Assembly (NCBI GenBank): GCA_045577985.1
Contig: JAZNJJ010000003.1
Location: 87,192-151,191, forward strand
Length of the DNA stretch: 64,000 nucleotides
Source of the DNA: Alphaproteobacteria bacterium
Lineage (GTDB): Bacteria; Pseudomonadota; Alphaproteobacteria; RF32; CAG-239
Direction of reading: 5' to 3'
Part shown: positions 31,383 to 34,300 of the stretch, piece after piece
Numbering within the stretch: the first letter of the stretch is position 1
Layout of the letters: each line of letters begins with the position of its first letter
Program-made: the position numbers and the translations under genes
Notes under the pieces: model-generated
The model's database searches: none
What the model was told of the DNA's origin: nothing
The model's input: the letters and a program-made list of their open reading frames with translations, nothing else

Positions 31383-34300
31383 ATGAGTAAAGAGCCATTA
31401 ACACATTCGGACAGATATGTCCGCAAAACGAACAGAATAATTCTAATAATAGGAATTATAGCATTACTTGTTTTCCTATTTGGCTTAGCATTATTAAGTA
31501 CTGAAGAAGTCGAACAAGTTCAACGATATCAGGTTGAAACAGGTATTTCTGCGGAAACAAATTTTGGATTATCTTCGGAGGGAAGTAATGAAGCTGAAAT
31601 AGAATTTGATGATTCGGAAGAAATAGGTCGTCCAATAACAATGACACCAAATCCAATAAATATGGGGCAAGTTGTTTTAGGTAGTGATGCCACAAACGTT
31701 TTAACCATAGGTACAAATGGTAAGAGTGCAATTAAAATCATATCTGTAGAACTTGAAGAAGTTGCTTTTGAAGGATTTACATTTGAAACAAATTGTAAAG
31801 ACAAAGAATTAAGAGGTAAAATAACATGCAATGTTACAATGAAGTGGACACCAACAGTTGCAGCTAATGTTCAAAATAATTTCAAAATTATATGGCGAGA
31901 AACAAATGTCTCTGATAGCAATGCAAAACACGATGAAGTTCCTGTTTTTGGAAATTCAATTAGAAAGGAAGATTGCAATTTCTGCGATACTACAGGAGTT
32001 ACATCTGGAAATATAGCAATAGATTCAGGTAAAAATTCGCGTTTAGCTATTGGACCAGATGGAAGAGTTATCGGTACGATTGGTGAAGACGGTATAGTTC
32101 GAGATGCTAATGGAAATGAAATCGGTAGAGTTAATGCCGATGGTATGATAGTTGATAAAGATGGCAATATAATTGGAGTTGCTTCTACAGAAAAACTTAT
32201 AATGGATGAAAATGGCAATGTTATAGGTTATGTTGATGCTAACGGAGTTGCACACGATGTGGATGGAAATGTTATTGGAACAATGTTAGCAGATGGCACC
32301 ATTGTTGATGCAAACGGTAATAAAATTGGTAAAGCCGTGGATTCAGGATATGTATATGACGATAATGGCAACATCATTGGGCGAGTTTTATCAGACGGAT
32401 CTGTTATTGACTTAGATGGAAATGTTATTGGAAGAGTGAACGAAAACGGCGAGGTTGTCGATATGAATGGCAACAAGATTGGTCATGTGGCCAAATCTGG
32501 TGAAGTTGTTTTTGATGCCAATGGTAACGCTATTGGTGTTGTTATGCCAAATGGTGACGTAGTGAATGAAAATGGAGACGTTATTGGTAGAATAGATGAG
32601 AACGGTAATTTAATTACAAAACAAGTTATTGGAAAACGAGGATCCACCGCTCAGTTAGCAGTTGATGAAAATGGTAATGTCATTGGATACATAGATGGAA
32701 ACGGTAATGTTGTCGATTTCAATGGTAATATTATAGGAAAAGTAGATGAAAACGGAAATATTCTCGATAAAGATGGTAATATTATTGGAAAAGCCAGTGA
32801 AGAATGGATGGATTTAGCATTAGATGAAAATGGTAATGTCATTGGGTATATCGATAATGAAGGATTAGTACATAATAGTTCAGGAGAGGTTGTTGGTTAC
32901 GTAGATGAGAACGGCAATGTAATAGGTAATATTACTCAGCAAGAAATTATAGGAAAACAATTAGATATAGGCTCTGATCAAAATTTAGCTGTAGATGAGA
33001 ATGGTAATATAATAGGAACTATAGATGCCAATGGAAACGTACTCGATTCCCAAGGAAATATTATTGGTAGAGTAGATGAAAATGGTAATATAATTGATAA
33101 GGATGGCAATACCATTGGTAGAAGAGGATCAAGTCGACGTTTAGCAGTTGATGCAGATGGTAACGTCATTGGCTATATAGATGAAAAAGGTAATGTTATC
33201 GATTTTAATGGTAACATGATTGGAAAAGTTGATGAAAGTGGTAATATCATCGATAAAGATGGTAATATTATTGGAAAAGCAAGCAATGAAGCTCGAGATC
33301 TAGCTATAGATGAAAATGGTAATGTCATTGGGTATATAGATGAAAATGGTTTTGTTCATGGAGCAGATGGAACAATTGTTGGAAAAATGAATAAAGACGG
33401 AAGCATTGTAGATAATAATGGAAATGTCATAGGAAAAAGAAAAACAGGACCTTCAAAAGTAGCTGTAGATGAGAATGGTAATATAATAGGAATTATAGAT
33501 GCCAATGGAAACGTACTCGATTCTCAAGGAAATATTATTGGTAGAGTAGATGAAAATGGTAATATAATAAAAAATAATGAAAATGATACAAATAATCAAT
33601 TTATTGGAACGAAAGGACGCAATGTTCAATTAGCCGTGGACGAGAATGGTAATGTCATTGGCTATATAGATGAAAAAGGTAATGTTATTGATTTTAATGG
33701 TAATGTTATTGGAAAAGTTGATGAGAGCGGAAACATTATAGATGAAAATGGTAACATTATTGGAAAAAGAGGAGCTTTAGCGCAATTAGCGTTAGATAAA
33801 AATGGAAACGTTATAGGTTATGTTGATGCTAATGGAGTTACAAGAAATGCTAACGGACAAATCATTGGTATTGTGGATGTCGTTGGAAATATAAAAACAT
33901 TTGGAACCAAGATAAGTGGTGCAATGATCAATAGAAATTTATTACCGATAACTCCAAGTGGTAGTGTTCTTGGTTCAATTAATAACCGAGGAGAAGTTGT
34001 TAAAGATAATAAGGTTGTCGGGAAAATGCGTCCTAATGGAATAGTTACCGATATTTCTGGTGCGAGAGTTTTAGCAAAAGGCGTAAATCCTGGCTATATA
34101 GTTAATTGGGGTTGTGATTATAGTAAAAAATTGGATAAAGATGGAGTTGTACGGCAGGATGGAGCAGATACAAATTATAAAGTATTTGCAGATGGAACAG
34201 TCTGGTCTCCTGAAGGGCTTTTTGTAGGTAAAGTTATAAGAACAGGAAGTGTCTACGATAATAAGTGTAATTATGTCGGTGAGGCATCCGCAGATGGATA

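Follow-up and report, generated by a model that had tools for sequence, protein, structure and literature searches.

Evidence for recurrent short-tract gene conversion in a giant beta-hairpin repeat gene of an alphaproteobacterial type IV secretion locus

Introduction

The stretch of DNA analyzed here (hereafter, the window) comprises 64,000 nucleotides (nt) from an alphaproteobacterium of the CAG-239 lineage (assembly GCA_045577985.1, contig JAZNJJ010000003.1, positions 87,192 to 151,191), and contains an operon for a VirB-type type IV secretion system (T4SS). Between the virB9 and virB10 genes of this operon lies an open reading frame (ORF) for a protein of 1476 amino acids (aa), referred to below as the giant repeat gene, the middle part of which is built from tandem repeats. 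A first-pass annotation of the window, made from its letters and ORFs, had proposed that near-identical DNA super-repeats inside this gene reflect recent duplication or gene conversion, and that they could serve as a substrate for in-frame recombination as in cagY of Helicobacter. The analysis presented here attributes the near-identity to short-tract gene conversion between repeats that are themselves old, a process that probably goes together with occasional in-frame loss or gain of repeat modules. The coordinates of all features are collected in Table 1.

The Giant Repeat Protein and Its Family

The giant repeat protein appears to be anchored in the membrane by a single predicted helix at its N terminus. 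This helix is followed by a weak immunoglobulin-like (ASH/choice-of-anchor-D) domain (ASH E=8e-4, below the curated cut-off), and from approximately residue 216 to the C-terminus the sequence consists of 17-residue 'DxNGNVIGxV' beta-hairpin repeats. Membership of the beta-flower clan (Pfam CL0395: PF21784/PF21785) is indicated by profile matches above the curated cut-offs, with 256 bits for Bflower_2 (cut-off 38) and 128 bits for Bflower (cut-off 25); DUF3659 is matched with 123 bits, and weaker RHS/YD signals are also present. A single-sequence AlphaFold2 model of the segment encoded by 32655-33896 consists entirely of hairpins with a 17-aa period (predicted local distance difference test score 72, predicted template-modeling score 0.32). 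When this fold was searched against the PDB, local Rhs/YD-like similarity only was detected (template-modeling score of about 0.1) and no global match, and a PDB sequence search with the giant repeat protein revealed no relative with a solved structure.

Searches of Pfam and NCBIfam profiles gave no TrbI/VirB10 match within 31383-35813, the TrbI domain belonging to the next gene. Judged from sequence and gene order, the giant repeat gene is not an orthologue of VirB10/CagY, but a conserved partner encoded between virB9 and virB10. We also considered the possibility that it represents the split-off N-terminal half of a giant VirB10, as prompted by seemingly 'fused' relatives of 2200-2400 aa. 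This was rejected, because the partner and virB10 are separate in every locus complete enough to show both; the 2200-2400-aa relatives are VirB10 paralogues with longer repeat arms. Gene order is identical in all 45 related loci retrieved from GTDB genomes, within the extent of their contigs, and the partner gene is conserved throughout. In 35 of them both VirB8 genes, VirB9, the partner, VirB10 and VirB11 are spanned in full, the other ten being cut by a contig end.

Repeat Architecture and Near-Identical Patches

The middle region of the giant repeat gene contains a higher-order repeat present in 2.5 copies of approximately 162 aa, each composed of sub-modules of 52-57 aa that follow one another in the order A1-B1-C1-A2-B2-C2-A3-B3 (B3 is partial, with 37 aa). 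The recurring module of the first-pass annotation is thereby confirmed, since its landmarks at 32655, 33141 and 33630 are the starts of the A-type sub-modules, with spacings of 486 and 489 nt that are both in frame. The description of these super-repeats as near-identical holds for four short patches only, whereas the whole super-repeats (SR1 to SR3) are merely 72-75% identical: 74.9% for SR1-SR2 (474 aligned nt), 73.4% for SR2-SR3 and 71.5% for SR1-SR3. Synonymous distances (dS) between cognate modules amount to 0.66-0.92 for the A pairs and to 0.79 for B1-B2, where the non-synonymous distance (dN) is 0.51.

Near-identity is restricted to four in-register patches of 31-109 nt. The longest of them links C1 with C2 (32986-33094 and 33460-33568); it encloses the segments 32988-33093 and 33462-33567, for which a difference at two of 106 nt had been counted by eye and is correct (positions 33019 and 33050). 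This tract is maximal, its borders are sharp, and identity outside it is at background level. Its two copies are 474 and not 486 nt apart because B2 is four codons shorter than B1. Of the remaining patches, one links A2 with A3 and two link the A1/B1 border with the A2/B2 border. The only other near-identical direct repeats up to 3 kb apart in the window result from a duplication of pilin genes (see below). When the metric employed for cagY is applied, which counts identical direct repeats of at least 16 nt (PMC2194252), the giant gene contains 25 such pairs, and the offsets of all 25 are multiples of three, in agreement with the earlier suggestion of a substrate for in-frame recombination. 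The virB10 gene contains none, and each of nine control segments contains 0-1. Note also that most hairpin repeats of the giant gene, and all those of virB10, show no conversion.

Gene Conversion Between Old Repeats

Synonymous divergence is far from uniform along the modules: the proportion of synonymous differences (pS) between SR1 and SR2 is 0.028 inside the patches vs. 0.579 outside. Where paired codons encode one and the same residue, the codon chosen is identical in 51 of 52 cases inside the patches, compared with 33 of 50 outside (Fisher P=1.3e-5). Codon-block permutation likewise gave P<=5e-5 for SR1-SR2 and approximately 2.5e-4 for SR2-SR3, with no signal for SR1-SR3, so that patches linking SR1 with SR2 and SR2 with SR3, but not SR1 with SR3, form a mosaic pattern. 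The super-repeat identities of 72-75%, the dS values and the comparison with orthologues together imply that the duplication itself is old. In a test for concerted evolution, similarity among the modules of the window barely exceeded their similarity to the closest modules of orthologues, which excludes wholesale homogenization. On this codon-level evidence, the near-identity is due to short-tract gene conversion between old, diverged tandem repeats and not to recent duplication. Of the two origins put forward at first, conversion is therefore upheld by the contrast in pS and by the strain variants described below, and recent duplication is contradicted by the dS of 0.66-0.92.

Approximately 20 gut-metagenome runs contain 49-85% of the k-mers of the giant repeat gene. 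Variants in such runs (X1-X19) were read from contigs or unitigs anchored in unique flanks, and the combinations of tract variants were found to differ between metagenomes of the species. In X14, X15 and X19, unitigs anchored in B1 carry G/G/T/T/G/T at positions 33009, 33018, 33019, 33027, 33029 and 33050 of copy 1, and in X15 and X19 copy 2 is window-like, as read from unitigs of 305-385 nt that are anchored in B2. The two tract copies thus differ at 5-6 of 109 nt in the X14/X15/X19 strains vs. 2 of 109 in the window strain. One A>G change is located in copy 1 (33009) in some samples, whereas X1-X5 have it in copy 2 (33483). At tract position 64, each copy of the window strain shows the state that the other copy has in X15/X19. 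As the flanks differ by only 0.1-0.8% within the species, polymorphisms that are shared and shuffled between the paralogous copies point to gene conversion that is evidently ongoing within the species.

Length Variation Across the Family

Among 31 complete orthologues from related species, the N-terminal part (~215 aa) and the C-terminal part (627-640 aa) are constant in length, and the variation is found in the middle region (196 to 990 aa). Many orthologues contain near-identical patches of their own, with lengths of 40-130 nt, and every patch detected in them is in frame. When orthologues were clustered at 90% identity, two of the seven clusters obtained were dimorphic, with full lengths of 1576 vs. 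1629 aa and 1258 vs. 1310 aa. The alleles of each are otherwise 97-99% identical and differ by one clean in-frame module, of 53 aa and 52 aa, respectively. Locus L069 has 159 extra nt in comparison with L068, the first ~100 of which are ~94% identical to the following module; by this likeness, the insertion is the footprint of an unequal exchange between adjacent A-type modules. The pair L017 (5292-9068) and L067 (1001-4933) is a mosaic in which pS changes from 0.145 in the first 650 nt to 0.008 in the next 550 nt, and then from 0.51 in an 800-nt block of the middle region to 0.016 in the C-terminal part. This alternation indicates homologous import of diverged segments centered on the repeat region.

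Many contigs from metagenomes or metagenome-assembled genomes (MAGs) end inside the repeat region (L019, L022, L028, L030, L036, L039, L040, L055, L056, L059-L062 and L064). Short-read assemblies thus break there, and complete MAG copies of the gene are biased toward alleles without long identical repeats; lengths of the giant repeat gene taken from MAGs have to be read with this bias in mind.

Candidate Rearrangements Within the Species

No Nanopore or PacBio run that contains the region was found in a search, and in most runs the Logan contigs (k=31) are interrupted within 32793-33659. Candidate rearrangements were nevertheless detected in two runs. In X16, a 525-nt contig runs from 35 nt with a unique match at 32956-32985, where B1 ends, straight into 33460-33949; the joint corresponds to an in-frame skip of 474 nt, or 158 codons, with the crossover placed within the tract. 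No sequence of X16 falls on 33035-33258 even at 85% likeness. Run X19, from the same study, shows the full-length region at even depth. In X17, a 319-nt contig joins 32820 to 33307 (a skip of 486 nt across a 31-nt shared patch) at 8x coverage vs. ~5x for the flanks; B1 is not covered at all, yet 33065-33194 is present. Runs X16 and X17 are together suggestive, although no proof, of structural polymorphism at exactly the sites predicted from the patches. A reduction to half depth over 32822-33279 in X3 and X6 was considered as a sign of a mixed population and rejected, being too noisy; the near-identical values of the two suggest related runs.

Interpretation

The explanation that we regard as probable is that of an old higher-order repeat that undergoes recurrent short-tract conversion, its patches occasionally mediating in-frame loss or gain of modules, at a frequency below that of cagY. 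Non-reciprocal homologous recombination between cognate sub-modules would repeatedly overwrite stretches of 31-109 nt in register; the overwritten stretches would be the near-identical patches seen today, and the process would continue in the species. The patches should moreover be long enough for unequal crossing-over or slipped mispairing, and, because they lie in register, the outcome of such events would be the in-frame loss or gain of entire modules, 474-489 nt long. Occasional module loss or gain of this kind would explain why only the middle region varies in length across the family. As these exchanges are in register with the lattice of hairpins and modules, the resulting proteins should remain able to fold, array length being the sole difference between them. 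The recombination mechanism is one that we infer. With the number of modules, a scaffold that surrounds the T4SS core in the periplasm or at the surface may change in length or reach.

Several observations weigh against this explanation. In five of the seven orthologue clusters, a single full length recurs in dozens of assemblies of independent origin (1581 aa, for instance, in more than 100 contigs; other examples are 1370 and 1373 aa), which implies that rearrangement is infrequent, and the variation in a 1266-aa cluster is limited to 1-3 residues located outside the repeats. Between L017 and L067, the 52-aa indel directly borders on the imported block, and may therefore result from allelic replacement rather than from de novo slippage. 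The ratio of non-synonymous to synonymous differences (pN/pS) is ~0.1 throughout, so that diversifying selection is not indicated. At the level of strains, X16 also contains unitigs at 2.5x from the 'deleted' segment, and X17 can equally be read as a deletion in a mixture or as a 319-nt block homogenized in both super-repeats. The evidence from X16, X17, X18 and X13 consists of de Bruijn contigs with k=31 at 3.6-8x coverage. The opposite joints at 31-nt patches in X18, which skips 486 nt, and X13, which goes back 486 nt, were rejected as probable graph artifacts, because the identical patch is exactly as long as the k-mer (k=31), at a coverage of 3.6-5.9x and with the competing edges situated in coverage gaps.

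A more far-reaching reading is that of cagY-like contingency, in which frequent, host-driven in-frame rearrangement within single hosts would tune the T4SS or evade immunity. We consider it unlikely: only 25 repeat pairs compare with the >300 potential recombination events per cagY strain (PMC2194252), most orthologue clusters are invariant in length, the pN/pS is low, and the gene is not a VirB10 orthologue, even though its position in a T4SS operon beside virB9 and virB10, the in-frame arrangement of all repeats, patch lengths in the range effective in cagY, and possible mixed architectures in samples (the half depth in X3/X6 and the minor unitigs of X16) would all be in keeping with such a role.

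A recent tandem duplication of the whole ~162-aa module, the tract being a remnant from before divergence, would account for the tandem arrangement and the in-frame spacing. It is nonetheless very improbable, since identity drops to background directly outside the 109-nt tract with sharp borders, the modules of the window are about as similar to those of orthologues as to each other, and patches link SR1-SR2 and SR2-SR3 at different places; the dS between cognate A and B modules already refutes it. Still less credit can be given to homogenization of the two copies by an assembly or polishing artifact in the source genome, since both copies, anchored in unique flanks, are reproduced by independent short-read contigs of several studies (e.g., X1 and X2 with 32822-33039 and 33308-33513, or X19 with 33170-33554), error-prone as repeat regions are and often as MAG contigs end in the giant repeat gene. 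Selection at the nucleotide level that keeps the copies identical as part of an embedded RNA or DNA element has nothing in its favor beyond the identity itself and can practically be dismissed, as RNA folding of the tract is not unusual (z=0.13), the tract varies between strains at 6-7 sites, and three other patches show the same pattern in different sequence contexts.

Comparison With Known Systems

The closest known system to the conversion and probable occasional module exchange in the giant repeat gene is the middle repeat region of Helicobacter pylori cagY (Aras et al., 2003, PMC2194252; Barrozo et al., 2013, PMC3585145). In-frame deletions were observed there in vivo between repeats as short as 33 bp and 156 bp (PMC2194252), and the patches of 31-109 nt described here are thus within the range sufficient for deletion. 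Similarly to cagY, the giant repeat gene belongs to a T4SS operon and encodes a very large protein, the ends of which are constant and the middle repeat region of which varies in length across the family. The direct DNA repeats of the gene preserve the reading frame in every case, and they are restricted to the repeat array and far above background. In-frame indels of one module occur among alleles of its relatives, and deletions and duplications of modules in cagY are flanked by repeats of tens to ~150 nt. Differently from CagY, the protein is devoid of a TrbI domain and encoded as a separate partner upstream of virB10, its fold of 17-aa beta-hairpins is unrelated to that of the CagY repeats, identical repeats are ~10-fold fewer, and length is stable in most species-level clusters, with variants being rarer. 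The analogy drawn by the first-pass annotation consequently stands for layout, mechanism and the 52- and 53-aa indels, and fails for the identity of the gene (not VirB10), for repeat density and for length, which is invariant in five of seven clusters. With respect to immune-driven switching or an effect on secretion of the CagY type, the likeness is one of layout and DNA sequence alone.

Beta-flowers are described as small barrels of ~96 aa with 4-6 petals (Pfam PF21784, PF21785, PF12396; Durairaj et al., 2023, PMC10584680). The giant repeat protein shares with beta-flower and DUF3659 proteins the strong Pfam matches and the 17-residue hairpin period with [DNEQ]xxG turns, but differs from described members in having more than 70 hairpins strung together in one predicted membrane-anchored protein of 1476 aa. 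The short in-register identity patches, and the polymorphisms common to paralogous copies, resemble the concerted evolution by intragenic gene conversion of tandem-repeat surface proteins in general, although here homogenization is confined to a small fraction of the array.

To our knowledge, CagY is the textbook and nearly sole case in which intragenic repeat recombination reshapes a T4SS component. The giant partner, which is non-orthologous and structurally unrelated to CagY, nevertheless combines constant ends with a plastic middle that always stays in frame, and this suggests that host-associated T4SSs may have arrived more than once at remodeling by repeats. The partner represents an uncharacterized protein family, kept in all 45 related genomes examined, that is likely to be a structural part of the T4SS. 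One may further speculate, without attaching much likelihood to it, that gut Alphaproteobacteria widespread in humans and ruminants possess an undescribed T4SS architecture in which two giant beta-hairpin proteins form the envelope-spanning or exposed part, and recombination in the middle region of the partner acts as a heritable switch of length or antigenicity; if true, a commensal would possess a counterpart of CagY that arose by convergence.

Genomic Context of the T4SS Locus

The window has a guanine-cytosine content of 33%. The proteins and loci closest to it come from MAGs of uncultured Alphaproteobacteria from human (Hadza and others) and ruminant guts. The best whole-protein identity of the giant repeat gene product to these relatives is only 50-57%, which implies that the GTDB representatives do not include the species of the window. 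When other assemblies of the species were sought, a look-up of the exact protein gave no entry, metagenome contigs of the Joint Genome Institute contained no match to exact 24-mers, and a protein-guided scan found other species only.

The T4SS operon that surrounds the giant repeat gene is chromosomal, as indicated by engB, yidC, gyrB, nrdD and a gene for a DegP-like protease nearby. With its co-linear VirB2, VirB4, VirB8, VirB9, VirB10 and VirB11 genes, it has the gene order of a type IVA (VirB/VirD4-type) locus. VirD4 was found neither directly after virB11 nor among the larger ORFs scanned, which represent part of the ORFs of the window; its gene may lie elsewhere in the genome. At the end of the operon (40001-43283), virB11 is followed by engB and yidC on the opposite strand. 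Six consecutive ORFs between VirB4 and VirB8 gave no match in a Pfam scan, and the largest of them, with 1090 aa, is also without NCBIfam match; their location would suit VirB5/VirB6-like components, which may have undergone an expansion similar to that in Rickettsiales. The long VirB9/CagX homologue has a weak C-terminal match to the peptidoglycan-binding SPOR domain (E=8e-4, below the Pfam cut-off). In the VirB10 homologue, approximately 1000 aa of beta-flower repeats precede the TrbI domain. Its length is stable in the close clade (1389-1414 aa) and reaches 2081-2366 aa in a more distant one (L009, L011, L023, L025 and L027), where the VirB10 arm is thus the expanded one.

A literature search for a T4SS of this type in gut Alphaproteobacteria gave no match. 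The vir homologue (rvh) system of Rickettsiales and the T4SS of Anaplasmataceae are chromosomal VirB-type systems of Alphaproteobacteria with expanded or duplicated component families, and the window resembles them in its duplicated components, namely four VirB2 paralogues and two VirB8 genes. We know of no giant repeat protein between virB9 and virB10 in those systems.

TABLE 1. Features of the giant repeat gene and of the surrounding T4SS operon (positions refer to the window; empty cells, no entry).
Feature	Position	Strand	Remarks
Giant repeat gene	31383-35813	+	1476 aa; ORF and translation; between virB9 and long virB10
Predicted single transmembrane helix	31437-31502	+	aa 19-40, RIILIIGIIALLVFLFGLALLS; inferred from hydrophobicity of the translation
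Middle repeat region	32028-33896	+	aa 216-838, 623 aa; sole length-variable part of the gene family
Super-repeat 1 (SR1)	32655-33140	+	A1 32655-32813, B1 32814-32984, C1 32985-33140
Super-repeat 2 (SR2)	33141-33629	+	A2 33141-33299, B2 33300-33458, C2 33459-33629
Partial super-repeat 3 (SR3)	33630-33896	+	A3 33630-33785, B3 33786-33896
Two exact 31-nt patches, A1/B1 border	32764-32794, 32821-32851	+	Identical to partners 486 nt downstream
Partners of the 31-nt patches, A2/B2 border	33250-33280, 33307-33337	+	
Putative conversion tract, copy 1, in C1	32986-33094	+	107/109 identical to 33460-33568
Putative conversion tract, copy 2, in C2	33460-33568	+	Partner of 32986-33094
Patch in A2	33157-33214	+	56/58 identical to A3 partner (offset 489); permutation P ~2.5e-4
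A3 partner of the A2 patch	33646-33703	+	
Conserved C-terminal region	33897-35813	+	638 aa; diverged beta-hairpin repeats, without near-identical DNA repeats
Four VirB2 pilin paralogues	13012-15009		13012-13410, 13832-14236, 14230-14628, 14638-15009
VirB4	15746-18175		
Six consecutive ORFs between VirB4 and VirB8	18179-27880		358, 559, 437, 425, 348, 1090 aa
Two VirB8	27896-28651, 28999-29739		
VirB9/CagX homologue, long	29757-31376	+	539 aa; Pfam CagX 41 bits
VirB10 homologue	35819-39991	+	1390 aa; Pfam TrbI 102 bits, Bflower_2 174 bits; NCBIfam VirB10/ComB10
VirB11	40001-40975		

The T4SS locus is adjoined by a type IVb/Tcp-like pilus cluster on the minus strand (3030-11148), encoding T2SSF, a T2SSE ATPase, a PilO-like protein, a secretin and TcpQ. 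A 496-aa acidic protein without family match is encoded between the two (11197-12687). Two of the tandem VirB2/TrbC pilin genes are very similar together with their upstream regions, 523 of 544 nt being identical between 12821-13364 and 13641-14184. The proteins encoded by these genes (13012-13410 and 13832-14236) differ by one residue over ~105 aa, after which the C-terminal ~25 aa are wholly diverged. This pilin repeat is a second recent duplication or conversion in the T4SS locus, possibly giving rise to C-terminal variants of the pilin.

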